NCBI GenBank assembly: GCA_036479435.1
Contig: JAZGFI010000227.1
Span: forward strand, 1 to 13,504
Direction of reading: 5' to 3'
Length of the DNA stretch: 13,504 nucleotides
Source: Planctomycetota bacterium
Lineage (GTDB): Bacteria > Planctomycetota > GCA-002687715 > DRQF01
A program made the translations under genes and the position numbers. Below are positions 1 to 13,504 of the stretch, one piece after another (position 1 is the stretch's first letter; every line of letters begins with the position of its first letter). The notes under the pieces were generated by a model. That model saw nothing but the letters and a program-made list of their open reading frames with translations. It searched no databases and had not been told where the DNA came from.

Positions 1-1510
1 GGTCGATCTTCCGAGGGCCGGTGGCCGCCACATCGTTGGGGCCAACAAAGGCCTCGCCCTTCGACTTCCACCAACGCTGCCACTTGCCTGGCTTGGCCTT
101 GTAGTCAAGGCCGGTGAGGCGCTGTAGTCCGTCGAGCGCAGTGTTGCGGACGATGGGGTCTTTGTCGCCGAGCGCCTTCAGCATGGGTTCAAAACAGGCT
201 TTCTTGCGCATCGCGGCCATGCCGGTAACGCCCGCGCCGCGGACTCGCCAGTTGTCGTGTGACAGCAGATCGCGGAGGTCGGGGACGGACTCTGCGTACT
301 TCATCCGGCCTAGCGACACCGCCGCCGCTAGGACGAGCTTCCATTCCGAACGCCGCAACATGGCGCGAAGCGAACCAAGGTCTCCACCGACCCGCGACTT
401 GCCGTACTGAGCCAAGACTTCTTCCAAGACCTCAGTGGACTCCTCGGCCTGCAAACGGGCGTCGAGGAGCTCCTTGCGCTTCCCGTCGAGTTGCATGGCT
501 GCCACGACCGCCTGAAAGCGCACTTTGGCTTCCTTGTCTTCCGCCGCAGTCTTGGCCAAAGCCTCAAAGGACTCCTTCAGGCGCATCTCACCTAAAACGC
601 GAGCGGCCGTGGCGCGAACTTCCGACGCCTTGTGACCGAGGCCGTCTTTCTCGATTGCGGTTCGCAGTTTCGCCGCGTCGCCCAAGGGCTCATCGCCACG
701 GGCCAAGTCTTGCAATAACTCGACCGCACTGGGACCCGACAGAGCGTTGGACGCGGCCAGAAATTCTTGGCAACGCGCCAAAGCGGGACGCCTCGTTCCG
801 TCGGCCGGAAGCCGCGACAAAAGGCCCACGACAGCTCGTCTATAGCGTCGCTGCAAGGACGATCGCAGCTCACCCTTGAGGGCCGCTAGCAGTATCGGGA
901 GAGCCTCTGGTTCGGCGCTCGCCGCAAGGCCTTCGGCGATACCGGCCCGGATTTCCGCGCGGCCGCGCTGCAACAGCGGCATCAAAGATTCGCGAGCTTT
1001 CTTGCCGCCGAAGGCGGCGCGGGCACGCGCCGCAGCCACGACGACCATGTGGTCTTCAGAATAGAGCAGCTTCGCGGCTTTTTTTTCGTCCGCGAGACCA
1101 ATCTCGCGCAACGCCTCCAGGGCACGCACCGTCTTTTTGCCCTTGATCGACTTCGTCAAGGCCGTGCGAGCGGCTGACCGATCAATCTGCGCTGCGGCTC
1201 GGCTCGCCGCTTCACGGACCGCGATCAAGGGGTGTTTTAAGGCCACCCCAATGACGGCGCTCAAGGCTGCTTTATCGCCCTTCATGCCCAGTGCTTCAAC
1301 GACGGCGCCATTGGTCTGCCAATCTTTGGTCTTCAGCGCCTTGAGGAGGAGCTTGGTGGCCGAAGGATCTGTGCTTTCTTGCAAGAGGTCGATCGCTCGC
1401 AAGCGGGTCCGAAGGTCTTTTGACTGGATCATCTGAGCCGGATCGTCCTGAGCCCAAAGAAGACCGGACACTAAAAACAGCAAGATGAACGCGCTAGTGG
1501 TGCGAAACAT
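1..1510 (-). CDS. HEAT/PBS-lyase-repeat protein with N-terminal signal peptide, 3' end off the left edge (>=503 aa)
   Basis: Missing from the ORF track because there is no stop in the window. Manual translation from ATG 1510: MFRTTSAFILLFLVSGLLWA|QDDPAQMIQSKDLRTRLRAIDLL... It contains repeated HEAT units (VRATAARVLG, VRFQAVVAA, LVLAAAVSLG, LLSHDNWRVRGAGVTGM, ALGDKDPIVRNTALDGLQRLTG..WQRWW) and stays open to position 2. Confidence 0.85.
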   Translation of the reverse strand, partial: MFRTTSAFILLFLVSGLLWAQDDPAQMIQSKDLRTRLRAIDLLQESTDPSATKLLLKALKTKDWQTNGAVVEALGMKGDKAALSAVIGVALKHPLIAVREAASRAAAQIDRSAARTALTKSIKGKKTVRALEALREIGLADEKKAAKLLYSEDHMVVVAAARARAAFGGKKARESLMPLLQRGRAEIRAGIAEGLAASAEPEALPILLAALKGELRSSLQRRYRRAVVGLLSRLPADGTRRPALARCQEFLAASNALSGPSAVELLQDLARGDEPLGDAAKLRTAIEKDGLGHKASEVRATAARVLGEMRLKESFEALAKTAAEDKEAKVRFQAVVAAMQLDGKRKELLDARLQAEESTEVLEEVLAQYGKSRVGGDLGSLRAMLRRSEWKLVLAAAVSLGRMKYAESVPDLRDLLSHDNWRVRGAGVTGMAAMRKKACFEPMLKALGDKDPIVRNTALDGLQRLTGLDYKAKPGKWQRWWKSKGEAFVGPNDVAATGPRKID

Positions 1511-1655
1511 GGTTTAGTTCCCAATGGAAGAATTCAGAGCCACGGGTGGCCAAGCCTGCAAAATGCCAGCGCTGTGGTCAACTATCACTGAGATGGTTGG
1601 CGTCGGATGCAGGGTGTAGTTTGACGGCGAACAGTACCAATCTCGGGGTTTTAAG

Positions 1656-2480
1656 ATGACGAGCCGTTCCGGCGACGATCCCAAGCCAGGATGGCGCGAC
1701 ACGCTGCACGAAGTCATTTTCGAGGCCGACACGCCAGCAGGCAAGGCCTTCGACGTCTTGTTGATCGTGTCCATTATCATCAGCGTGCTCGCCGTCGTGC
1801 TCGAAAGCGTCACCAGCATCCGCGCTAAATATGGGGCCATCCTGATCACCGCCGAGTGGTTTTTTACGGTGGTATTCACGATCGAGTATATCTTTCGCCT
1901 GATCAGCGTCCGGCGGCCCCTCAACTACGCGACTAGTTTCTTCGGCGTCGTCGACTTTCTATCCATCATCCCCACCTACCTCGCCCTTTTCATTCCGGGC
2001 GGCCAAACTCTCATGACGATCCGCGGCCTACGCTTGCTGCGTGTCTTCCGCGTCTTTAAGTTGTCGGCCTATGTTGGCGAGGCGCAGAGCCTCGCCCTCG
2101 CTTTACGCGCCAGCCTGCGCAAGATCATGGTATTCGTCTTGGCGGTCATCACCATTGCCGTGATCGTCGGTTCCTTCATGCACGTCGTCGAGGGCGAAGA
2201 TTCTGGCTTTACCGACATCCCCACCAGTGTCTACTGGGCGATCGTTACCTTGACGACCGTAGGCTACGGCGACATCGCCCCGGTAACCCCGCTCGGCAAA
2301 ACCCTCGCCTGCTTCGTCATGATGTGCGGCTTCGGCATCATCGCCGTCCCCACCGGCATTGTCTCCGTGGAGATGTCCCGCATTGCCAAAGAGGAGACGA
2401 CGCAGTCCTGTATCTCTTGCAGCCTCCAGGGCCACGCCGTCGACGCGGTTTTTTGTAAGTTCTGCGGCACAAAACTCTAG
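1656..2480 (+). CDS. Ion transporter / voltage-gated K+ channel (Ion_trans type) with C-terminal zinc-ribbon
   Basis: Six hydrophobic segments, an S4-like motif RGLRLLRVFRVFK, the selectivity filter TTVGYGD, and C-terminal CISC...CKFC. Confidence 0.92.
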   Translation: MTSRSGDDPKPGWRDTLHEVIFEADTPAGKAFDVLLIVSIIISVLAVVLESVTSIRAKYGAILITAEWFFTVVFTIEYIFRLISVRRPLNYATSFFGVVDFLSIIPTYLALFIPGGQTLMTIRGLRLLRVFRVFKLSAYVGEAQSLALALRASLRKIMVFVLAVITIAVIVGSFMHVVEGEDSGFTDIPTSVYWAIVTLTTVGYGDIAPVTPLGKTLACFVMMCGFGIIAVPTGIVSVEMSRIAKEETTQSCISCSLQGHAVDAVFCKFCGTKL

Positions 2481-2498
2481 CGAGTTTCCGCCCATTTC

Positions 2499-2527
2499 TT
2501 GACGGGGCACTTTGACTGATATAGCCT
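2499..2527 (+). promoter_or_regulatory. Putative sigma70 promoter of the cas operon
   Basis: TTGACG (2499-2504), 17 nt, then TAGCCT (2522-2527). An alternative extended -10 is TGaTATAGC (2517-2525). It lies about 80 nt upstream of cas3. Confidence 0.5.
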
Positions 2528-2605
2528 GTGAGTCGCACGACTGGCAGGCGCGAGGCACAAGTCACATCGTAAACCCCATCCCAATGGAGAGCCGAGACAA
2601 CGGTA

Positions 2606-4867
2606 ATGCCAGGTCATTTCGCACATACATTTCCGGGAAAAAGCTGCGGATCATGGCAATCGCTAGAAGATCATCTGAATGCGGTTGCAGAGATCTGCTC
2701 GAAATTCGCTGATCGGTTTGGAGCAGCCGATTGGGGTCATGCGACCGGCCTATGGCACGACCTTGGAAAATACTCGTGCGCGTTTCAGTCGTACCTGTCT
2801 TCAACCAGCGAGCCAGACTCCCACCAAGCGGAAACACGAGGTTCGGTGGATCACGCAACGGCGGGTGCACAACATGCCGTGAAAACAATTCCCGTGCTCG
2901 GACATCTAATCGCTTACGTCATTGCTGGCCACCACAGTGGTCTCCTCGACGCGATTTCCGATGGGGCCAATCAGGAAAAGCGGCTGGCAAAAGCGATCGA
3001 GCCTTGGGTTCACGGCCTGGCGAAACTGAACACCCCCAAGTCACCTCAGTTACCAGAATTCTTGCGTCGAGCCTTGGATCAGCGCTCTTGTGATCCCAAA
3101 GCTACGGCATTCAGCTTCGCGTTCTTCACGCGTATGCTGTTCGCTTGCCTGGTAGACGCCGACTTTCTCGACACTGAAGCCTTCATGAGTCCGGCCCGAG
3201 CCGCTGATCGACCGACTTGGCCGTCAGACATTCTATCCCAGATTTCCGACTGTACTGACAGCCATGTCAATGATCTCGGTGCCCGTCAAACTCCGGTCAA
3301 TCGACGACGACAAGAGGTCCGTCAGGCCTGCATCCAAGGCGCCGAGCTCAACCCAGGACTGTTCTCTCTCTCCGTTCCCACCGGTGGTGGAAAAACTCTC
3401 GCGTCATTGACTTTCGCGCTTCGTCACGCAGTCCGTCACGGCATGGAACGCGTCATCTACGTCATCCCATTCACCAGCATCATCGAGCAAAATGCCGCCG
3501 TTTTTCGCTCGATAACTGCATCTCTCTGCGGGGGTGGACTCGCCGACCCTGTCATCGAACATCACAGTTCCGTCGATGTCGGAGAGGAGACAGTCGCCAG
3601 CCGGCTCGCAACAGAGAACTGGGATGCTCCGATCATCGTCACAACAACCGTCCAATTCTATGAGTCGATGTTTGCGAATAGATCTAGGCGTTGTCGAAAA
3701 CTCCATCGCCTTGCCAAGTCAGTCATCATTCTTGACGAAGTGCAGTCGATCCCCGTCGACTACCTAAAGCCCTGCCTAAGCGCTCTTCGTGAACTATCTG
3801 AGAACTACGGGAGCAGTGTCGTCCTTTGTACTGCAACTCAGCCCGCCGTCCACCATCGCGACGAGTTTCCAATTGGGCTAAAGGGTGTGCGAGAGATCAT
3901 CCCCGAGCCGACCGAATTGCACCAATCCCTCGAACGAGTCGAAGTCGTCGATATTGGTGATCAGGGTGATTCCGAACTCGACCTACTGCTTGCGGAACAC
4001 AGACAATCCCTTTGCATCGTGAACACGCGCAAACACGCTCGACGCCTTTTCGAAGGGCTCAAAGCTCGGCAGGGGATTTTTCATCTCAGCGCATCCATGT
4101 GCCCAGAGCACCGCAGCTCGACCCTCAGAGAAATCTTTACGGCCCTGGAACGAGGTGAACGTTGTCAGGTCATTTCGACCCAAGTCATCGAGGCGGGCGT
4201 GGATGTCGATTTCCCCGTCGTTTTCCGTTCTCTGGCCGGCCTCGACTCGATTGCGCAAGCCGCGGGACGGTGCAATCGTAATGGGGAACTGAAAGGACTC
4301 GGAAAGACCTTCGTGTTTCGTTCGGAACACAGGTCGGCTGAGCGATTCCTGAGAGAAATGTCGGGCGCAGCCCGTCAGATTCTTGGCGGACTAAATAGCC
4401 GACCCCTTTACCCTGATCTCCTCGCGCCGGAGGCCATCGAGCACTATTTCCGACTGTACTACTGGAGCCAGAAAGACCGCTGGGATGCACACGACATTCT
4501 CGCTCGAGATCTTCTGGACTCGAACAATCCAAAACTTCCCTTTGTCTTCGGCTTTGCCACAACTGCCAAGAACTTCCGTTTCATCGAAAACTGCAACCAA
4601 GCGATCATCATTCCTTGGCGACATCGGGGACGCGAACTCTGCGAGGCCCTACGCGCGGAATACGGAACGCCGCGTCAGAGCACTCTCCGCGAACTGCAAA
4701 GATACAGCGTTCAGATTCCCGAGCATCAGTACCAAAGGAACGTTGGGCTGAACATCGAACTCATTCAAGATCGATACCCGATCCTCACTAGCCCAGAGCT
4801 CCACTACGACGAGGAACTCGGCATTCTGTTGGACGACGAAACTCCGAAGGCGAGTTTCGTCATATGA
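2606..4867 (+). CDS. cas3: CRISPR-associated helicase/nuclease Cas3 (HD + SF2 helicase)
   Basis: HD domain motifs HDLGK, DHATAG, IAGHHSGL, LVDADFLDT; helicase motifs PTGGGKT, DEVQ, TATQP, QAAGRCNR. Confidence 0.97.
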   Translation: MPGHFAHTFPGKSCGSWQSLEDHLNAVAEICSKFADRFGAADWGHATGLWHDLGKYSCAFQSYLSSTSEPDSHQAETRGSVDHATAGAQHAVKTIPVLGHLIAYVIAGHHSGLLDAISDGANQEKRLAKAIEPWVHGLAKLNTPKSPQLPEFLRRALDQRSCDPKATAFSFAFFTRMLFACLVDADFLDTEAFMSPARAADRPTWPSDILSQISDCTDSHVNDLGARQTPVNRRRQEVRQACIQGAELNPGLFSLSVPTGGGKTLASLTFALRHAVRHGMERVIYVIPFTSIIEQNAAVFRSITASLCGGGLADPVIEHHSSVDVGEETVASRLATENWDAPIIVTTTVQFYESMFANRSRRCRKLHRLAKSVIILDEVQSIPVDYLKPCLSALRELSENYGSSVVLCTATQPAVHHRDEFPIGLKGVREIIPEPTELHQSLERVEVVDIGDQGDSELDLLLAEHRQSLCIVNTRKHARRLFEGLKARQGIFHLSASMCPEHRSSTLREIFTALERGERCQVISTQVIEAGVDVDFPVVFRSLAGLDSIAQAAGRCNRNGELKGLGKTFVFRSEHRSAERFLREMSGAARQILGGLNSRPLYPDLLAPEAIEHYFRLYYWSQKDRWDAHDILARDLLDSNNPKLPFVFGFATTAKNFRFIENCNQAIIIPWRHRGRELCEALRAEYGTPRQSTLRELQRYSVQIPEHQYQRNVGLNIELIQDRYPILTSPELHYDEELGILLDDETPKASFVI

Positions 4868-4880
4868 GAGGAAGCGCAAG

Positions 4881-5612
4881 ATGAGCTATGGAATCATGCT
4901 GGAGGTTTGGGGCGAATACGCATCCTTCAACCGGCCAGAAATGAAGGTGGAGCGTGTTTCCTACGAAGTCATGACACCAAGCGCCGCGAGAGGGTTCTTA
5001 GAAGCCATCTACTGGAAGCCACAAATGCGCTGGGTGATCGACCGCATCCACGTCCTCGCTCCAATCAAGTTCTCGCACGTGCGGCGCAACGAGATCGACT
5101 CCCGCATTCCAGTCGGTGGCCCAAGCGGGGTACGGAGCGCCATGAAGTCCGAAAAAGGCGACTTGGGAATCACGGTTAGCAATCACCGTCAGCAACGCGC
5201 CGCCATGATCCTCAGCGATGTTCGCTACGGAATCGTAGCGCATGTTGAAGTCTTGGACGCGCAAGAAAAAGACGGAACCCTAAACCCACACGCGGGCTCC
5301 AAACACGTCGAGGCTTTTCGGCGCCGTGTCCGAAAAGGCCAGTATTTTCACCATCCCTATCTCGGGTGCCGAGAGTTTCCCGGTTCATTTCAGCATGTCG
5401 ATAGCGAAGGCGACTGGGGCTGCCCCAAGGAGCTCGAAGGGCAACGCTCTCTCGGATTTATGCTCTGGGACATGGAGTTCGTCGAAGACGAAAAGGGGGC
5501 GATTGTGGAATCCAACCGGGGTCGCCGACTGAGCGCCACGGCTAGGTTCTTTGACGCCATGATGACGAATGGCGTTCTCGAAGTTCCACCTCTTTCCGAA
5601 ACGCGGGCTTGA
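4881..5612 (+). CDS. cas5c: Type I-C Cas5 (Cas5d), pre-crRNA processing endoribonuclease
   Basis: Motifs WGEYASFNRPEMKVERVSYEVMTPSAARG, IYWKP, RRNE and PYLGCREF; RBS GAGGA upstream; no cas6 in the locus. Confidence 0.96.
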   Translation: MSYGIMLEVWGEYASFNRPEMKVERVSYEVMTPSAARGFLEAIYWKPQMRWVIDRIHVLAPIKFSHVRRNEIDSRIPVGGPSGVRSAMKSEKGDLGITVSNHRQQRAAMILSDVRYGIVAHVEVLDAQEKDGTLNPHAGSKHVEAFRRRVRKGQYFHHPYLGCREFPGSFQHVDSEGDWGCPKELEGQRSLGFMLWDMEFVEDEKGAIVESNRGRRLSATARFFDAMMTNGVLEVPPLSETRA

Positions 5613-5614
5613 CG

Positions 5615-7366
5615 ATGATCCTCAGAGCACTCCATGACCTTCATGAAAGACTGAAAGACGATCCTGACTACGAGATTGCGCCAGATGGCTTTAGCTACCA
5701 AAAAGTGACTTTCGTGATTGTCCTCGAAACTGATGGCCGTTTGGTGGAAATCGCTGACACTCAGATCGAAATCAATGGCAAGACTCGACCTCGACGGGTT
5801 CTTGTTTTCGGAACTGCAAAGCCCAGCGGAAAAGGGTTGAATCCTTGCTTCCTCTGGGACAACACAAAGTACATCTTGGGGCATGATGGCAATGTCGATC
5901 CGAAGAAACGCAAACCCGAGCGTGCACAACAGGTGTTCGAGGCCTTTAGGGAAAGGCACATCTCGCTTCGCAAGAAAATCGGCTCGTCTGAGTTTGATGC
6001 AGTTTGCAATTTCCTTTCGGGATGGAAACCGTCCGATGCTGAGAAGCATAGCGTCCTCGCCGAGGGCACCTCCGGCTTCGGTGTCTTTCAGATCCGTGGT
6101 CAAACACACTTTGTCCACGAGACCCAGAAAATCCGCACCTTTTGGCTCCAAGACCGACAAGAAGATCCAGAGGGTCCGCTGTCAACTTGTTTGATCACCG
6201 GAGAGGTCTCACCGACCGCACGAATTCATCCGAAGATCAAGGGTGTCTGGGGAGCACAGAGCTCAGGCGCAGCTATTGTCAGCTTCAACGACAGTTCCTA
6301 CTTGTCATATGGCAAAGTACAGAACTTCAATGCGCCCGTCTCCAGTGGCGCGGCAAGACATTATGTCAAGGCGCTCAACGCACTTCTCGACGGCCCAATG
6401 CAGGAGAAGCACCGCTTTGGAATCGGCGACATGACCTTGGCCTTCTGGACGGATCGGCCCTCTGCGCTGGAAGACATATTCGTGGAGTTTAGCCAGAGCG
6501 GCGAAGGAAAAGCCGTTGAATCATCACAGGACGAAGGGCTTAGGTCAAAAATCGGCGCACTGCTTAGAGCGCTCCGGCAAGGACGCGAGGCCTACGCCGA
6601 TCTCGATGACGAGCCCGACAAGACCGAATACTTCCTGCTTGGGTTGTCCCCCAATGCAGCTCGTCTATCCGTTCGGTTTTTTTGGCGTGGCAATCTGACA
6701 GCATTCCTCGACAAACTTCGGCTCCATTTTCAGCACATCCAGATCGAAACTCAAAGAAATTCTGACCGGGAGTTTCCGCCTGCGTGGCAATTGCTCCGCC
6801 AAACCGCGCGCGAGTCGAAAGACATCCCACCCATTCTCGCCGCGCCTTTGCTACGAGCGATCATCGACGGATCGAACTACCCTCCCGCCATGTACTCTGC
6901 CATCATTGGAAGAATTCGCGCAGACCGAGACATCAACCATGCTCGCGCTTGCCTCATCAAAGGATACCTCATACGCAACTTGGGAAAGGACATGCCCATG
7001 AGTCTCGACAAGTCTCAAATAGATAGCGGATACCGTCTCGGCAGGCTTTTTGCCACTCTCGAGAAAACCCAAAAGGACGCCCTCGGTGAGAACTTAAACG
7101 CCACCATTCGGGATCGCTTCTACGCTTCCGCGTCGGCGACTCCTGGGCCCGTGATACCTCGCCTGCTTCGCACTTATCAACACCATCTCGCCAAACTCAG
7201 TGGTGGGCTGAAAGTAAGTCGCGAGAGGTTGCTTCAAGAAATCATGGACGGCCTCGATCAGATTCCGGCGCAGCTTGACCTCAGCGCTCAAGGTTGCTTC
7301 GCGCTCGGCTACTACCACCAAATGAACGACTTCTACAAGAGACGTACCGATGACTCGAAAGATTAA
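5615..7366 (+). CDS. cas8c: Type I-C large subunit Cas8c (Csd1)
   Basis: MILRAL N-terminus (ATG 5615; TTG 5609 overlapping the cas5 stop is the alternative start), LWDN..Y, CLITG, SFN..S..SYG..Q..NAPV, LSPNAARLSVRF, and position between cas5 and cas7. Confidence 0.95.
   Translation: MILRALHDLHERLKDDPDYEIAPDGFSYQKVTFVIVLETDGRLVEIADTQIEINGKTRPRRVLVFGTAKPSGKGLNPCFLWDNTKYILGHDGNVDPKKRKPERAQQVFEAFRERHISLRKKIGSSEFDAVCNFLSGWKPSDAEKHSVLAEGTSGFGVFQIRGQTHFVHETQKIRTFWLQDRQEDPEGPLSTCLITGEVSPTARIHPKIKGVWGAQSSGAAIVSFNDSSYLSYGKVQNFNAPVSSGAARHYVKALNALLDGPMQEKHRFGIGDMTLAFWTDRPSALEDIFVEFSQSGEGKAVESSQDEGLRSKIGALLRALRQGREAYADLDDEPDKTEYFLLGLSPNAARLSVRFFWRGNLTAFLDKLRLHFQHIQIETQRNSDREFPPAWQLLRQTARESKDIPPILAAPLLRAIIDGSNYPPAMYSAIIGRIRADRDINHARACLIKGYLIRNLGKDMPMSLDKSQIDSGYRLGRLFATLEKTQKDALGENLNATIRDRFYASASATPGPVIPRLLRTYQHHLAKLSGGLKVSRERLLQEIMDGLDQIPAQLDLSAQGCFALGYYHQMNDFYKRRTDDSKD
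6998..7366 (+). CDS. cas11: Cas11c small subunit, in-frame internal translation start within cas8c (122 aa)
   Basis: SD-like AAGGA (6986-6990) lies 7 nt before in-frame ATG 6998. The product MSLDKSQIDSGYRLGRLFATLEK... matches the Cas8c C-terminal helical domain known to be expressed separately in type I-C systems. Confidence 0.75.
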   Translation: MSLDKSQIDSGYRLGRLFATLEKTQKDALGENLNATIRDRFYASASATPGPVIPRLLRTYQHHLAKLSGGLKVSRERLLQEIMDGLDQIPAQLDLSAQGCFALGYYHQMNDFYKRRTDDSKD

Positions 7367-7384
7367 GCTGAGGAAACGAACGCA

Positions 7385-8242
7385 ATGAACCGACACGAAT
7401 TCGTAATGATTTTTGATGCCCGAGATGCAAACCCAAATGGCGACCCGGATGCCGGAAACTTGCCACGCATTGACCCCGAAACCGGCCACGGTTTGGTAAC
7501 TGATGTTTGCTTGAAAAGGAAAGTCAGAAACTACGTTTCGTTAACACGAAGCAACGACGAAGGGCACCGAATCTACTTTAGAGAACGGGCCGTCCTTAAC
7601 CGGATCCACGAGGAGGCCTACAAACACATTGGGGAAAAACCGAAGAGCAAGAAACTGCCGAGCGACGTCGAAAAGGCCAGAAAGTTGACCCAATTCATGT
7701 GCCAGAATTTCTGGGACATTCGCGCCTTTGGTGCTGTCATGAGTACGGAAGTCAACTGCGGACAGGTTCGCGGCCCAGTACAAATCTCATTCGCCAGGTC
7801 GGTCGACCCCATTTTCGCACAAGAACACGCCATCACGCGAAACTCCGTCACCAATGAAAGAGACCTCGAAAAGGAACGCACGATGGGCCGTAAGTTTACG
7901 ATTCCCTACGGTATCTACGTTGCTCACGGTTTCATCAATCCCTTCCTCGCTGACCAAACCGGCTTTGGTGACAGTGATCTCGACCTACTCTGGGAGAGCC
8001 TCGCCAATGCCTTCCAGTTCGACCAGTCCGCCGCCCGTCCAGCGGGCTCCATGGCTATGCGACGCCTCGTCGTTTTTCGCCATGCCAGCAAGTTGGGCGA
8101 GGCACCGTCCCACCAGCTATTCGAAGCCCTTAAAGTCGTTAGGAAGTCCGAGTGTGCGGTGCCACGCAAGTTTGCGGACTACGAAATTGACATAGACACG
8201 GAGAAGATCCCGGCGGGAGTCGAAACCCTTGAAAAGGCATAG
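7385..8242 (+). CDS. cas7c: Type I-C backbone subunit Cas7 (Csd2)
   Basis: Motifs NPNGDPDAGNLPRID, TDVCLKRKVRNY, DIRAFGAVM, GQVRGPVQ, RTMGRK. Confidence 0.97.
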   Translation: MNRHEFVMIFDARDANPNGDPDAGNLPRIDPETGHGLVTDVCLKRKVRNYVSLTRSNDEGHRIYFRERAVLNRIHEEAYKHIGEKPKSKKLPSDVEKARKLTQFMCQNFWDIRAFGAVMSTEVNCGQVRGPVQISFARSVDPIFAQEHAITRNSVTNERDLEKERTMGRKFTIPYGIYVAHGFINPFLADQTGFGDSDLDLLWESLANAFQFDQSAARPAGSMAMRRLVVFRHASKLGEAPSHQLFEALKVVRKSECAVPRKFADYEIDIDTEKIPAGVETLEKA

Positions 8243-8245
8243 ACC

Positions 8246-8944
8246 GTGTTCAAAGACGCCGATCTTCTCCCCCTTTCAGGGCTTCAACATCTGGTTTTTT
8301 GCCGCAGGCAAGCAGGCTTGATTCACGTGGAATCACAATGGGCCGACAACAAATTCACGGTCGAGGGTTCGCGTCTACACGAGCAGGTGGATCAGTTGGG
8401 ACGCCGCCATGAAAAGCGCGGCAACCTAGTTGTATCACGGGGCATTTGGATTCGTTCGCAGCGCTTGGGTCTGATTGGACGAGCCGACGTCGTGGAGTTT
8501 CGTCGCGTTGAATGCGGCGACCCGACATACCCGGTGGCCGTTCCTCTTCCGGGCCGCGACGGAAGGTGGCGACCGTTACCCGTCGAGTACAAGCGCGGCA
8601 AACCAAAAGAGCACCGCGCCGACGAAGTTCAGCTCTGCGCCCAAGCGATGTGTATCGAGGAACACTTCGAGATCGCTATCTCCGAGGGCTCGCTTTATTA
8701 CGGGCAGACCAAACGGCGAACCGAAGTAGATTTCGACGAGGGCCTCCGGGATCTCACGAAATCTGTCGCTCGAGACTTCCACAATCTCGTCAAGAACCGT
8801 GAAACCCCAAGGGCAGAACCCGGAGCCAAGTGCACAAACTGCTCGCTCCTTGAGATTTGCGTACCCTCGGCGGTCGAACACCAAAATGCTGCGTCTCGTT
8901 ACATCCGAAATTCTGTTCGATTGATTGCCCGCGAACGATCATGA
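8246..8944 (+). CDS. cas4: Cas4 RecB-like nuclease
   Basis: LSGLQH..FC.RQ, G.AD.VE, PVEYKRG, QLCAQ, and a C-terminal Cys cluster (CTNCSLLEIC); GTG start. Confidence 0.95.
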   Translation: MFKDADLLPLSGLQHLVFCRRQAGLIHVESQWADNKFTVEGSRLHEQVDQLGRRHEKRGNLVVSRGIWIRSQRLGLIGRADVVEFRRVECGDPTYPVAVPLPGRDGRWRPLPVEYKRGKPKEHRADEVQLCAQAMCIEEHFEIAISEGSLYYGQTKRRTEVDFDEGLRDLTKSVARDFHNLVKNRETPRAEPGAKCTNCSLLEICVPSAVEHQNAASRYIRNSVRLIARERS

Positions 8945-9975
8945 AACGACATCTTAACACTCTTTTTGTAACGACAGACGGCGCTTACTTGGCAGCGGTG
9001 GGAGAGACCGTGGCCGTCAAGATAGAAGGTGAAACCAAACTGAGAGTCCCGCTTCATCTCCTCCAAGGAATCGTCTGCTTTGGTCGCGTCTCAGCCAGCC
9101 CCCAATTGATGTCTCGGTGTGCAGAACGTGATGTTGGCTTGTCATTCCTCAGCAGTCACGGGCGTTTTCAAGCCAGAGTGCAGGGACCCATCTCCGGCAA
9201 TGTTTTGCTTCGGCGCGCTCAATTCCGCCTAGCGGATTGCCCCACATTTTCGGCCTCAATTTCCAAGGTCATCGTCACGGCTAAGATCGTCAACTGCCGC
9301 AGTATTCTTCGACGCCGACTGCGCGACCATCCCGACGCCACGGGGTCCAGCGCCATTCAGACCGCCGTTGACGAACTCGCCAAGCGTGTTTCTAGTCTGG
9401 ATCGCAAACTCAGCCTCGACAGCATCCGCGGTGTCGAAGGAGATGCTGCACGTATCTACTTCTCAGTATTCGACCACCTCATCGTCCAACAAAAACAGGA
9501 GTTTAAATTTCAGGAGCGGAGCCGTAGGCCACCTCGGAACGCGGTCAACGCCGTTCTTTCGTTTGGCTACAGCCTCCTCGCACAGGACGTTTCCTCAGCA
9601 CTCCAGGCCGTTGGCCTTGATCCACAGGTGGGTTACCTTCATCGAGATCGCCCTGGGCGCCCCAGTTTTGCCTTAGATCTAATGGAAGAACTCCGCCCCA
9701 TCATGGTCGACCGTGTCGCGCTTTCTCTCATCAATCGGCGCCAGATCAAGATTACGGGATTCAAAGTTGAGGAGGCTGGCGGTATCCACATGGATGACAA
9801 GACGAGAAAGAAACTACTCATCGCCTATCAAGAGAGAAAAGACGAAGTGCTCGTCCATCCCTTCCTCGGTGAGAAAATTAGCTCGGGTCTCATCTCCCAC
9901 ATTCAAGCGAGACTTGCCGCACGATACATCCGTGGCGAGTTAGATGCCTATCCCGCCTACTTCCACCGCGGTTAG
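8941..9975 (+). CDS. cas1: Type I-C Cas1 integrase (344 aa)
   Basis: The likely start is ATG 8941 (ATGA overlap with the cas4 stop, MKRHLNTLFVTT). Motifs GNVLLRR.Q, RGVEG..AR.YF, NAVLSFGY, GLDP..G.LH, LALDLMEELR-like FALDLMEELR. Confidence 0.97.
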   Translation: MKRHLNTLFVTTDGAYLAAVGETVAVKIEGETKLRVPLHLLQGIVCFGRVSASPQLMSRCAERDVGLSFLSSHGRFQARVQGPISGNVLLRRAQFRLADCPTFSASISKVIVTAKIVNCRSILRRRLRDHPDATGSSAIQTAVDELAKRVSSLDRKLSLDSIRGVEGDAARIYFSVFDHLIVQQKQEFKFQERSRRPPRNAVNAVLSFGYSLLAQDVSSALQAVGLDPQVGYLHRDRPGRPSFALDLMEELRPIMVDRVALSLINRRQIKITGFKVEEAGGIHMDDKTRKKLLIAYQERKDEVLVHPFLGEKISSGLISHIQARLAARYIRGELDAYPAYFHRG

Positions 9976-9988
9976 GGAGAATTGAGCC

Positions 9989-10279
9989 ATGATGGTCGTC
10001 GTCAGTTACGATGTTTCTACGAAAGACCCCAACGGATCACGGCGCCTCCGGCGCGTGGCCCGTGCTTGTTCTGATTACGGCCAACGAGTTCAGAATTCAG
10101 TTTTTGAGTGCTTGGTCGATCCGGAGCACTGGGCCCGACTCAGGAATCGTCTACTCGACGAGATCGATCCGTCGGTCGACAGTCTACGATTCTATTTCTT
10201 GGGGGCTCGATACAGCCGTCGGACTGAGCACCATGGCGCCAAAGAACCCCACGATCCCCAATCGCCCATGATCGTATAG
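9989..10279 (+). CDS. cas2: Cas2
   Basis: VVSYDVST...G.RRLRRVA..C..YGQRVQNSVFEC, DSLRFY; RBS GGAG upstream. Confidence 0.97.
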   Translation: MMVVVSYDVSTKDPNGSRRLRRVARACSDYGQRVQNSVFECLVDPEHWARLRNRLLDEIDPSVDSLRFYFLGARYSRRTEHHGAKEPHDPQSPMIV

Positions 10280-10462
10280 CCTGCTTGCGAACCCAAAGTG
10301 CTCACAGTAACCCCGGGAGGTTCGCGATGCCAACAAGGCCCTGCAAAGAAAGCACTTACGTCGTGCGACCCCCATCGTTTGCAAGTTCAAATTACGCATG
10401 CAGTAACCCTCGCGATTTTCCGATTCTAAACCCATGCCCATCAATTGGTTTAGACTCCCGCA
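10280..10462 (+). promoter_or_regulatory. CRISPR leader
   Basis: A 183-bp non-coding stretch between cas2 and repeat 1. It has an inverted pair GCGAACC (10287-10293)/GGTTCGC (10319-10325), a direct repeat CAGTAACCC (10305, 10401), an inverted pair CTAAACC/GGTTTAG (10426-10453) and an IHF-like CATCAATTGGTTT (10439-10451). Confidence 0.8.
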
Positions 10463-12257
10463 GTCGCTCCCCTCGCGGGAGCGCGGATTGAAACCGCGGC
10501 TCTGCATTCGGTCAAGCGACTTGCCGAGTCGCTCCCCTCGCGGGAGCGCGGATTGAAACCCGGCGTAGTCGTCTTGTTCAACCCCGCCGAAGAGTCGCTC
10601 CCCTCGCGGGAGCGCGGATTGAAACGTCGCCACCCCCGTGGCCTAAAGCTTTGTTGGCGGTCGCTCCCCTCGCGGGAGCGCGGATTGAAACTTACCGAGG
10701 CCGAACAAGACGAACTGTTCGGTGGTCGCTCCCCTCGCGGGAGCGCGGATTGAAACAAAAGACCGGGTGGAAGATCAACGAGAACGTATGTCGCTCCCCT
10801 CGCGGGAGCGCGGATTGAAACTTTCCAGGGTGCTCCTGGAACAGGGTCGGGGTCTGGTCGCTCCCCTCGCGGGAGCGCGGATTGAAACAACCGCAATGAC
10901 GGCACTTCTCCAGGATCCGTAAGTCGCTCCCCTCGCGGGAGCGCGGATTGAAACCCCTGGTAAGCGCGGGCATAGCGCCCGCCTTTAGGTCGCTCCCCTC
11001 GCGGGAGCGCGGATTGAAACAACTGGCGCGCTTGTTTTTCGTACCTTCGGGACGGGTCGCTCCCCTCGCGGGAGCGCGGATTGAAACCCCCTGCCAGCGA
11101 CAAAAGGCGGTCGACATCGGGTCGCTCCCCTCGCGGGAGCGCGGATTGAAACCGTTGAGCAACGATCAAGACCTGCTGAATTACGGGTCGCTCCCCTCGC
11201 GGGAGCGCGGATTGAAACCGGCTATCTCGCTCGACCGCGTCTTTATGACGGAGTCGCTCCCCTCGCGGGAGCGCGGATTGAAACGCTTGTCGTCAGAGCC
11301 TATCGACACCATAACCCAGTCGCTCCCCTCGCGGGAGCGCGGATTGAAACATTCCCTGCATCACCGAACACAACTACGTTGAATGGTCGCTCCCCTCGCG
11401 GGAGCGCGGATTGAAACACACAGAGCGATCCTGATATCACCTTGACTGAGATCGTCGCTCCCCTCGCGGGAGCGCGGATTGAAACGACGAATCAGCCAGA
11501 TTTTCTGCTGAGGTGTAAAGTCGCTCCCCTCGCGGGAGCGCGGATTGAAACTTCCTCTGTCATGCTTGACTTCCGTATCTCTCAAGTCGCTCCCCTCGCG
11601 GGAGCGCGGATTGAAACGATAAGGGGTCTAAAAGTTTCAGGAATTACTTGGTCGCTCCCCTCGCGGGAGCGCGGATTGAAACTTCATAAGCTCAAGGACA
11701 ATTCAAAATTTCTTTGGTCGCTCCCCTCGCGGGAGCGCGGATTGAAACGCAGATGGGTGACGAAGACAAAAGAGCGTCTGAGGTCGCTCCCCTCGCGGGA
11801 GCGCGGATTGAAACCTGTAGACCGAGCACCAGATCACAAACGCCAACGTGTCGCTCCCCTCGCGGGAGCGCGGATTGAAACTCCCCAAAATCCACAGGAC
11901 CACCCCCACCCCACGTCGCTCCCCTCGCGGGAGCGCGGATTGAAACCTGGATAGCACGATGCCCCACCAGATGGTGCGCAGGTCGCTCCCCTCGCGGGAG
12001 CGCGGATTGAAACGCACGTCCGCCTCGGCTCCCACAACGCCCTCTCGTCGCTCCCCTCGCGGGAGCGCGGATTGAAACATTTACAAATAGTCACTGGTAG
12101 GGTCGGTCTCTTGTCGCTCCCCTCGCGGGAGCGCGGATTGAAACCAGGTCTGGCGTCGCGTCAAGGACAGCAACCAAAGTCGCTCCCCTCGCGGGAGCGC
12201 GGATTGAAACTGAATCCATCGAGGCTCATGTCATCCCGCCAGGTCGCTCCCCTCGCG
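10463..12257 (+). CRISPR. Type I-C CRISPR array: 27 identical 32-bp repeats GTCGCTCCCCTCGCGGGAGCGCGGATTGAAAC, 27 unique spacers (32-36 nt), and the 5' half of a 28th repeat
   Basis: Repeats start at 10463, 10528, 10594, 10660, 10725, 10790, 10857, 10923, 10989, 11056, 11121, 11187, 11253, 11319, 11386, 11454, 11520, 11586, 11651, 11717, 11783, 11850, 11915, 11982, 12047, 12113 and 12179, with a partial repeat at 12243-12257. The stem CGCTCCC/GGGAGCG and the ATTGAAAC end are typical of I-C. Confidence 0.99.
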
Positions 12258-12440
12258 TGTTGACGGTGGCCTAGAAGTGCGGATAAGCGGCGCTTTGTAC
12301 ACGGGCCGCCAGGCCTCAACGGTGCCCAGATCGGAGGGTCGTGTTGGATGTCGAGGTCTCTTGGAGTTTCGTTCCTGAATTCAGAAACGTGGTCTTGGTG
12401 AAGGGAATTGTGTCCGCCTCGGGCCTGCGGTCGCTATGGG

Positions 12441-12911
12441 CTACTGGCGTAACTTGTCCGTCGTGAGGCTTGCTTCGAGCTTGCGGTCTGATCTGGTGGG
12501 TCTTTGCCGCTTAGGTAAAGAGGGAGCCCAACGAAAAAACCCGTTGTTTGGTGATGAGCAAACTCGGCACTGGATGTAGGCGATGGGGTCTTTGCCTTCT
12601 CTTCCGCCAGTGTCAGCGGGTTGTTGCCGTTTTGGCTCCGCGTCACCTCCGACTTGAGCGAATGCGGGACCCTGATGCGTTACGGAACCGCTTCGGTCGC
12701 GAAACCGCTGTTGGCGTGCTCTCGCTGATTCCCTGCCCTTCTGCGTCTTCCTGTAGCGTGCCGCAGCTTCGCATTGCTTCTCTCGCCGACTCGATTGGGC
12801 ACATTGAGCAGAGCAATACCGTTGTCCGCGGTCACAGGTCAGGCAGATGCTCACGAGACGGTGGCAACGTGAACAGTAAAACAACCTCTGTGACTCAATC
12901 GCTTCAATCAT
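12441..12911 (-). CDS. Cys-rich, basic hypothetical protein (putative zinc-finger nucleic-acid binder), cargo of the element
   Basis: The only protein-like ORF in the element (ATG 12911; GTG 12917 alternative). It has CSRC-x6-CLTC-DRGQRY-CSAQC, then an Arg/Gln-rich helix (RARQQRFRDR, VTHQG) and a distal CRVC. Confidence 0.75.
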   Translation of the reverse strand: MIEAIESQRLFYCSRCHRLVSICLTCDRGQRYCSAQCAQSSRREKQCEAAARYRKTQKGRESARARQQRFRDRSGSVTHQGPAFAQVGGDAEPKRQQPADTGGREGKDPIAYIQCRVCSSPNNGFFRWAPSLPKRQRPTRSDRKLEASLTTDKLRQ

Positions 12912-12943
12912 GGCCACTTAGCTTAACCCAAGAGTGGGCACAT

Positions 12944-13003
12944 CCGAGACACCCCAGGGTCTTGCGACCAGTCTGTCGAAGTGGTGAGGCTGCCAGACCT
13001 CGG
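12944..13003 (-). ncRNA. Candidate structured cis-RNA upstream of the cargo ORF (multi-stem junction plus pseudoknot)
   Basis: Manual pairing on the minus strand: CCGAG/CUCGG, GUCUG/CAGAC, GGUC-GCAA-GACC (GNRA loop), and loop GCCUCA pairing with UGGGGU. No family recognised. Confidence 0.35.
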
Positions 13004-13023
13004 CAAAACGATGCGACTTGAAC

Positions 13024-13057
13024 CTTGGTTCCCGGGGCCATGGCCCCGGGAACCAAG
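13024..13057. repeat. Perfect 34-bp palindrome
   Basis: CTTGGTTCCCGGGGCCA|TGGCCCCGGGAACCAAG, with 17/17 pairs and no spacer. Confidence 0.95.
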
Positions 13058-13178
13058 ACCGCCTGCGCCCTTACCCCTACGCCAACCAAAAATTCGGTGC
13101 CCAGGAAACGCGGACCGTTAACGCGGCGGTCATGCGCGCAAAGCGCCATCTATGCGCAGGTCTCAACCGCCGTCTACA

Positions 13179-13201
13179 CTCGCGGGAGCGCGGATCATGG
13201 C
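13179..13201 (+). CRISPR. Displaced 3' part of the degenerate terminal CRISPR repeat
   Basis: CTCGCGGGAGCGCGGAT (13179-13195) is an exact 17-nt match to repeat positions 10-26. It is followed by CATGGC instead of TGAAAC. Confidence 0.92.
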
Positions 13202-13425
13202 GATTCCGTTTGAACGTGTGAGAGTGGTTTCGGCGGACGATCACTTCAGCGGCCTGTGGTGGTGAGACACTGCGGCCCAATTGGCCACAGTGAATATTTA
13301 GTTCCGAGCTAGTCTCATTCCCAACTCCTTTGTTTGCAGTGGACTAAGCCAGCTGGCGAATTCCCTCATGATTGAAGCGTTCCGCCTGCTACGCTCTGTG
13401 CTTAGAGTCTGCCGGGAGATCCACC

Positions 13426-13504
13426 ATGCGTTTCATCTTGTGCACTTTGTTGTTGTCGTCTTTGGGCTTGGCTCAGAATCTGCCGGTCCGCCATGTTTTC
13501 GACG
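13426..13504 (+). CDS. 5' fragment of a probable secreted protein (runs off the right edge)
   Basis: RBS GGGAG (13414-13418) and ATG 13426; MRFILCTLLLSSLGLA|QNLPVRHVFD is a typical Sec signal peptide. Confidence 0.65.
   Translation, partial: MRFILCTLLLSSLGLAQNLPVRHVFD

Follow-up and report, generated by a model that had tools for sequence, protein, structure and literature searches.

A transposase-less relative of a three-gene IS21 branch splits the terminal CRISPR repeat of a Planctomycetota bacterium

Insertion sequences (ISs) of the IS21 family generate target-site duplications of 4-8 bp. In IS5376, direct repeats are paired at each end with a spacing of about 23 bp (L1/L2 and R1/R2), and CA ends, 5-bp duplications and no strong target specificity are reported (PMC10122671); for Paracoccus members of the family, duplications of 7-8 bp are given (PMC3281130). 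MITEs (miniature inverted-repeat transposable elements) and other non-autonomous IS derivatives lack a transposase, carry the inverted repeats of their parents, generate duplications, occur in multiple copies and coexist with full-length partners. Non-autonomous derivatives of IS21 are known as a kind, as are ISs in arrays of clustered regularly interspaced short palindromic repeats (CRISPR), and IS6110 reportedly lies within the direct-repeat locus of Mycobacterium tuberculosis. Here we analyzed a window of 13,504 nucleotides from a Planctomycetota bacterium (assembly GCA_036479435.1, contig JAZGFI010000227.1, positions 1 to 13,504 of the forward strand), in which a 921-bp element divides the last repeat of a CRISPR array. 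We found that this element retains the ends and the first gene of a distinct IS21 branch, whose full-length members encode, in this order, a cysteine-rich protein, the DDE transposase IstA and the AAA+ helper IstB.

The insert resembles IS21 and IS5376 in its 5'-TG...CA-3' ends, its inverted repeats of the kind recognized by IstA, its short target duplication, and in having full-length relatives that encode IstA and IstB. It differs from them in lacking both genes, and its branch differs in having an upstream third gene, for the cysteine-rich protein, and a distant IstA. With MITEs and related derivatives it shares the features given above, coexistence with full-length partners being seen for analogous mini-elements in other genomes, but at 921 bp it is filled to one half by an intact, conserved gene, and this gene-only design recurs at about 0.6 kb in other phyla; the strict definition of a MITE, small and without coding capacity, does not describe an element with a conserved gene for a 158-aa protein. 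IS6110 is likewise a DDE-type IS that interrupts an array and is tolerated there, but it belongs to another IS family, whereas here a non-autonomous element sits in the loop of a terminal repeat.

The array consists of 27 intact 32-nt repeats (GTCGCTCCCCTCGCGGGAGCGCGGATTGAAAC) and 27 spacers of 32-36 nt (10463..12242, plus strand), with the full repeats spanning 10463 to 12210. As it lies downstream of cas2 on the same strand, position 12243 marks its leader-distal end. Here the 5' 15 nt of a 28th, terminal repeat (12243..12257, plus strand) break off at 12257/12258, and the remainder, CTCGCGGGAGCGCGGAT followed by a degenerate 6-nt catggc, resumes at 13179 (13179..13201, plus strand), so that 17 consensus bases and a degenerate tail (13196-13201) make up its 3' part. 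The insert between them (12258..13178, minus strand; the element is oriented right to left in the window) begins with TGTTGACGG and finishes with CCGTCTACA, giving TGT...ACA ends. A base-by-base count found 29 matches in 40 between its 40-nt terminal inverted repeats, and in a repeat search no inverted repeat of the window was longer than this terminal pair. The 6-mer CTCGCG stands on both flanks (12252-12257 and 13179-13184) and corresponds to repeat positions 10-15: CTCGC is the 5-nt loop of the repeat hairpin and the final G opens the 3' arm of the stem, which measures 7 bp in a fold of the site. An earlier note on this DNA had proposed that a single repeat was split in its hairpin loop; removal of 12258-13178 together with one CTCGCG copy does restore the repeat, and every detail observed there was correct. 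Its view that the insert is a product of DDE-type transposition and not of Cas1-Cas2 is likewise supported.

The insert carries one gene (12441..12917, minus strand), which encodes a 158-aa protein with eight conserved cysteines from a GTG start, or 156 aa from the ATG at 12911. We refer to it as the Cys gene. A perfect palindrome of 34 bp (17+17, no loop; 13024..13057) lies between the gene-proximal, left end of the element and the gene start. No T-run follows it on either strand, no variant falls within it among the listed differences between sibling copies, and it could be a protein-binding site. A promoter and terminator scan of the insert found nothing.

The earlier note had assigned the element to IS21 from its ends and duplication, and the Cys gene now supports this call by a new route, since both it and the two termini are homologous to elements that encode IstA and IstB. 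A scan of one genome per species yielded 566 relatives, from which 80 loci in 52 genomes were retained, and the Cys gene was multi-copy within genomes. At 63 of the 80 loci, in 41 of the 52 genomes, IstA followed directly downstream on the same strand (62 loci scored by script plus L064, whose overlapping frames the script mis-scored); IstB was also present at 48 of these 63, and the Cys gene stood alone at 17 loci in 11 genomes. The neighboring proteins scored 232.9 and 267.8 bits against NF033546 (IstA; cut-off 160), 214.9 and 189.3 bits against PF01695 (IstB; cut-off 24.1), and 220.7 and 195.1 bits against NF038214 (IstB; cut-off 200, one slightly below). The ends of full-length elements were taken from copy-to-copy boundaries, because finding inverted repeats with blastn-short missed most of them; this gave elements of 3370 bp in Rhizobium sp. 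SL86 and 3818 bp in a deltaproteobacterial metagenome-assembled genome.

Seventeen termini, namely the two of the insert, two of a sibling type in the same genome (type A, below) and those of full-length and mini-elements from four other phyla, could be aligned gaplessly; over the 45 columns the mean column identity is 66%, and T1, G2, T3, A18 and G22 are invariant. The insert's terminal repeat at 13139..13178 (minus strand), on the right in the window, matches the left, gene-proximal end of the full-length relatives, and the one at 12258..12297 (plus strand) matches their right, IstB-side end. From this correspondence, the insert reads left end, gene, right end, without istA-istB. Branch duplications of 4-7 bp, in keeping with the values known for IS21, were present at 14 of 23 two-ended copies (5 bp at ten, 7 bp at two, and 4 and 6 bp at one each); the remaining nine copies were presumably rearranged later. 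Within the branch, IstA proteins are 46-65% identical across phyla, versus 22-29% between branch IstAs and the IstAs resident in this genome. IS21 elements of this genome without the Cys gene have only TGT in common with the branch ends. Two of these, C212 (2565 nt) and C71 (2593 nt), are whole elements each assembled as one contig, with a clear direct-repeat pair about 23-24 bp apart at each end, as in IS5376.

Neither transposition gene is present in the insert itself. Its open reading frames matched nothing in Pfam or NCBIfam, and profiles of the branch IstA and IstB run against its six frames gave best E-values of 3.6 and 1.7, respectively. The genome holds eight IstB loci, all on other contigs. 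An element without istA and istB must be mobilized in trans, as the earlier note had suggested. That note had also called the element transposase-less, which holds for istA and istB, but the element is not coding-free, as it keeps the conserved 158-aa gene.

The element is one of a family of copies. Searching the 5.47-Mb assembly (299 contigs), we found its ends at 13 other places at 83-96% identity, besides a weaker right-end relic on C37. Five are further left ends (C1, C178, C162, C163 and C22), four of which match the insert's left terminal repeat at 96% identity over 71-127 nt, and eight are right ends or relics (C119, C40, C124, C160, C68, C2, C117 and C263; 83-96% identical). Eight of these end copies begin or end a contig, as would be expected where a multi-copy repeat breaks short-read assembly. 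Three more left/right pairs with 6-bp duplications could be reconstructed (C162/C119 with GTCTTG, C163/C40 with GATGAC and C1/C160 with CTTGAT), so the duplication is 6 bp in all four defined pairs of this genome, the insert included; in a fourth candidate pair, C178/C124, the flanks agree at only 5 of 6 positions. The copies that we call type B (C162, C163/C119, C40) track the insert over the entire 126-127 nt available, and in those of type A (C1, C178/C124, C160) the match runs to 71 nt at one end and to 107 nt at the opposite end before they diverge.

Of the C22 copy 352 nt remain, up to the point where an unrelated multi-copy IS interrupts it. This part of C22 (735-4086; pile-up at 1347-2501) is an IS pile-up beside argS, with an ISL3 transposase fragment adjoining. 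The IS that cuts the fragment shows a right end with an integrase-type C-terminal tail and also ends C180, C87, C257, C194, C201 and C208; the tail was considered as the parent's transposase and rejected, as it belongs to this other multi-copy IS. Five gene-proximal ends survive as solo relics of 44-98 nt with no partner end nearby (C68:6590-6673, C2:7607-7704, C117:4793-4845, C263:36365-36411 and C37:~4404-4447), and of the other end only the C22 fragment survives alone. For one IS21 member, one-ended events or adjacent deletions have been reported (PMC3281130).

Contigs from the Logan collection, from runs that may include the source sample, independently bridge both junctions of the insert. 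A contig of run X2 covers the left junction (12179-12304) and contigs of runs X1 and X10 cover the right (13132-13450), each with 0 differences, which answers the concern about misassembly raised in the earlier note. The interior of the insert occurs in these contigs as the exact sequence and as a variant about 4-9% different at 2-4 times the depth, which would fit the type B sibling copies. No empty-site joint was seen among the contigs of four runs, and as contigs drop rare variants, this does not show that none exists.

The protein encoded by the insert has one public match at 80% identity; an exhaustive profile-free search returned 1977 representative clusters at E≤1e-3, of which 262 reached E≤1e-10. 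Across alignments with 30 and 134 members, C15, C18, C25, C28, D29, C35, C39 and R44 do not vary. A second cysteine group, C117 and C120, shows at least 90% conservation, with an arginine-rich stretch separating it from the first. AlphaFold2, given the 134-row alignment, produced a model with a mean predicted local distance difference test (pLDDT) score of 81.5 and block means of 92-97 for residues 11-70, in which the cysteines sit on two beta hairpins followed by two long helices (37-57 and 59-76). The protein is zinc-finger-like. Neither Pfam nor NCBIfam has a family for it; PHROG gave a single match of unknown function (E ~1e-3), a sequence profile search of the PDB returned only uS14 (E=0.033), the best Foldseek match was YacG (E=2.5), a VIA wide search reached a best Z of 2.8, and the ESM Atlas holds only 'hypothetical protein' clusters. 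On RefSeq plasmids the gene is hypothetical or without annotation, and a protein search of metagenome contigs gave 211 pattern matches and 0 relatives. In a survey of the phylum, 10 of 401 genomes (400 sampled plus the window's own, which is among the 10) carried the Cys gene, the closest being 57% identical. Among the Acidobacteriota, several matches to the gene (L161-L163 in G569, L164 in G468, L176 in G790 and others) contain one or two in-frame stops (TAG, TGA, TAA).

Differences between sibling copies point to purifying selection on the Cys gene. Of the 40 differences listed, out of 46 variants and from contigs that may mix copies, 18 fall in the gene and 9 of these are synonymous; in codons 1-80, 7 of the 11 listed differences are synonymous, compared with 23.5% expected for random changes, and none of the three 1-nt indels listed falls within the gene.

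Gene-only elements of this kind recur elsewhere. Mini-elements of 589-615 bp with the Cys gene alone and TGT-type ends were found in three Acidobacteriota genomes and one Bdellovibrionota genome, and a similar element of about 0.66 kb, with less clear ends, in a Thermoanaerobaculia genome. The mini-elements are active, as genomes G401 and G402 each hold seven identical (100%) copies. The G402 mini-element measures 599 bp, has a duplication at all seven copies, and matches the ends of a 3.3-kb full-length element of that genome at 90% over its last 49 nt and 83% over its first 35 nt; the two stand in the classical relation of a non-autonomous to an autonomous element, but with a gene retained. 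A branch-type IstA is present in four of the five genomes that hold mini-elements; the query did not find one in the fifth, the 3.1-Mb G404.

In Tn7 and Tn5053, a transposase and an AAA+ regulator work with a target selector, TniQ or TnsD. The branch is alike in logic only, in that a DDE transposase and its AAA+ partner come with a small third protein, but no Pfam, NCBIfam or fold match ties the Cys-rich protein to TniQ or to any family. It is conceivable, though we would put it forward only tentatively, that the protein is an unrecognized third component of transposition in this one branch of IS21 which binds IstA, and perhaps also the ends or the palindrome. Made in cis, it would let mini-elements capture the IstA and IstB of their relatives, and the protein or the small size of the elements may bias insertion to arrays. 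Hints in this direction are the retention of the gene under apparent purifying selection and the independent occurrence of gene-only mini-elements in at least three phyla. When the IstA, IstB and Cys-rich protein of Rhizobium were modeled together as three chains, the score was 0.48 (runs 0.55, 0.48 and 0.44), with at least 33% of contacts in common among the three runs and a partner pLDDT of at least 57; controls scored 0.00 at best, and 0.00 with IstA replaced. Of 157 solved complexes 116 reach the pass mark used, as do 2 of 215 mismatches; scores of at most 0.60 include only 18 of the 157 but both passing mismatches, and the calibration is only rough here, with our own alignments and three chains. 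The prediction lends weak support to a link between IstA and the Cys-rich protein, and we treat it as a lead rather than a finding.

Together, these results make it likely that the insert is an internally reduced, non-autonomous member of a distinct IS21 branch, mobilized by IstA and IstB, whose position reflects near-random insertion plus survival. It retains two IS21-type ends and the first gene only. IstA and IstB from a full-length relative elsewhere in the cell would bind these ends and expose the 3' CA, and the CA ends would be joined to staggered nicks 6 bp apart that by chance flanked the loop of the last, leader-distal repeat; repair of the gaps would then duplicate CTCGCG. Such an insertion would survive because a broken terminal repeat costs at most the oldest spacer, through 3' processing of its CRISPR RNA. 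The type A sibling, longer-looking and known from its ends at four contig termini, is probably the source acting in trans. A short parent, once suggested by the 2-kb contig floor, was dropped, as the full-length interior may be unbinned.

Several observations weigh against this interpretation. A full-length element with the insert's exact ends was not recovered in the genome, and the interior of type A is missing from the assembly. The assembly contains no branch-type IstA or IstB and no second Cys gene beyond the C22 fragment. Searches of the insert and of the type A ends recognized no IstA or IstB remnant (all E>0.5), and an origin by internal deletion is therefore something we infer rather than observe. 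The exact end motif had 0 matches in scans of genome-contig and metagenome-contig collections, and the exact ends gave one 34-nt match only (E=4.8e-4) in 60 relatives. Paired subterminal repeats of the L1/L2 type amount in the insert to a weak short motif about 24 bp apart, seen by eye. The restricted variant list behind the synonymous-change test belongs here too. Finally, the array is the only one in the genome and its repeats make up 0.016% of the assembly, so that an array strike among about ten insertions is unlikely a priori, but the window was chosen for this feature.

Under one alternative, CRISPR arrays or hairpin-forming DNA are favored targets of the element or of its branch, for example because IstB reads deformable DNA or because the Cys-rich protein directs insertion. 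The earlier note had raised such a preference for hairpins or for the repeats of CRISPR. In this genome, the repeat site forms its 7-bp hairpin, unlike the three other defined sites, which fold no better than shuffles (z -0.01, 0.06 and 0.90), and the duplications CTCGCG, GTCTTG, GATGAC and CTTGAT show no consensus. A check of 93 related loci for periodic repeats flagged four. Of these, L056 and L073 hold ordinary tandem repeats well away from the element, and the remaining two are genuine CRISPR arrays of G402, both hit mid-array by the 599-bp mini-element (L138, C2:1400991-1404589, and L139, C2:704057-707655, in that genome). In one, the mini-element splits a 37-nt repeat with a 5-bp duplication of repeat positions 11-15, and in the other it lies within a spacer of an array with 29-nt repeats. 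A third array of G402, with the 37-nt repeat and 15 kb away, is intact. As the G402 arrays occupy about 7.3 kb of 5.9 Mb, uniform insertion would place at least two of seven copies in them with P ~3e-5, and with the window there are three events in three array types, all of them involving mini-elements.

The counts elsewhere argue against targeting. None of 10 loci in G401 and G403 lies in an array. An Acidobacteriota survey found the Cys gene in 23 of 401 genomes, including G402 and the unpublished G454, with at most nine candidates scored per genome; 54 regions with 55 sites from 21 further Acidobacteriota genomes showed no array within 5 kb. None of about 98 full-length sites (63 + 35) lies in an array. 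Overall, among 156 distinct sites in other genomes, 2 fall within arrays, both belonging to one mini-element in one genome (two of its seven copies), as judged by a detector that requires at least three exact 16-18-mers within 1.5-5 kb flanks and misses small arrays. This number exceeds the uniform expectation of about 0.1-0.2 sites, with no control IS family counted, but since insertions are tolerated in arrays, survival bias by itself makes them more frequent there, and 2 of 156 is not clearly above what such tolerance would give. One of the three array events lies in a spacer, so the hairpin as such is not the target. With none of the three other sites here structured and 2 of 156 sites elsewhere in arrays, the preference is not borne out as a rule, and we consider targeting improbable. 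Tolerance at a nearly neutral trailer repeat, which the earlier note had offered as the other option, is the simplest reading.

Near-random insertion of an IS21-branch element also has to be set against a different family origin. TGT...ACA ends and short duplications are common to several DDE families, and the element might come from IS481, IS3, or a Tn7-like or Tn5053/Tn402-like group, its likeness to IS21 being superficial. The element contains no transposase, and an integrase-type tail adjoins the truncated C22 copy. That tail, however, is part of another multi-copy IS, present at many contig ends, and the gene and both 45-nt termini are homologous to IS21-type elements with IstA and IstB, which leaves another family with very little room.

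Equally hard to sustain is the idea that the insertion was selected for disabling the array, for example through relief of self-targeting or entry of a useful plasmid. One account documents the inactivation of cas genes by ISs and mentions insertions into CRISPR loci (PMC10359306), and both G402 insertions are mid-array. In the window, though, the last repeat was struck with no spacer downstream, and the adjoining locus is complete. It is a type I-C cas operon (2606..10279, plus strand) comprising cas3, cas5, cas8c (csd1), cas7, cas4, cas1 and cas2, followed by the leader (10280-10462) and the array. Every cas gene has an intact frame, and Pfam matches over curated cut-offs were obtained for Cas3-like_C_2 and DEAD (cas3), Cas_Cas5d, Cas_Csd1, Cas_Cas7, Cas_Cas4, Cas_Cas1 and CRISPR_Cas2; the Cas3_HD match of cas3, at 22.1 bits, is slightly below its cut-off of 23.1. 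Searching the 27 spacers against the organism's own genome gave only chance matches of 14-18 nt, and thus no self-targeting spacer. As listed from their first possible starts, the cas4 (8246-8944) and cas1 (8857-9975) frames overlap by 88 nt, and the true cas1 start probably lies further downstream. An Rfam scan of the window returned only CRISPR-DR9 matches, all sub-threshold.

An assembly chimera joining the array to a repeat from elsewhere can be set aside: the multi-copy element does break the assembly at other places, but contigs of three runs, which may include the source sample, bridge the junctions without differences, and the half-repeats and the duplication fit one transposition event exactly.

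The CRISPR insertion itself is ordinary. Its lesson is modest: such insertions accumulate in trailer repeats and array interiors, array callers will truncate here, and the small excess of array hits in G402 merits a census. Literature searches turned up neither a three-gene IS21 branch nor its Cys-rich protein, nor mini-elements of IS21 in arrays or with only this gene, with entries in ISfinder or TnPedia not excluded. IS21 is a current structural model of an AAA+ partner controlling a DDE transposase, and descriptions of it give two genes. The system would gain a component from a branch as widespread as this one (1977 protein clusters), whose third gene is conserved but unannotated, and likewise from transposase-less elements in which exactly this gene is kept. 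Some bacterial elements called non-autonomous are, moreover, not coding-free.

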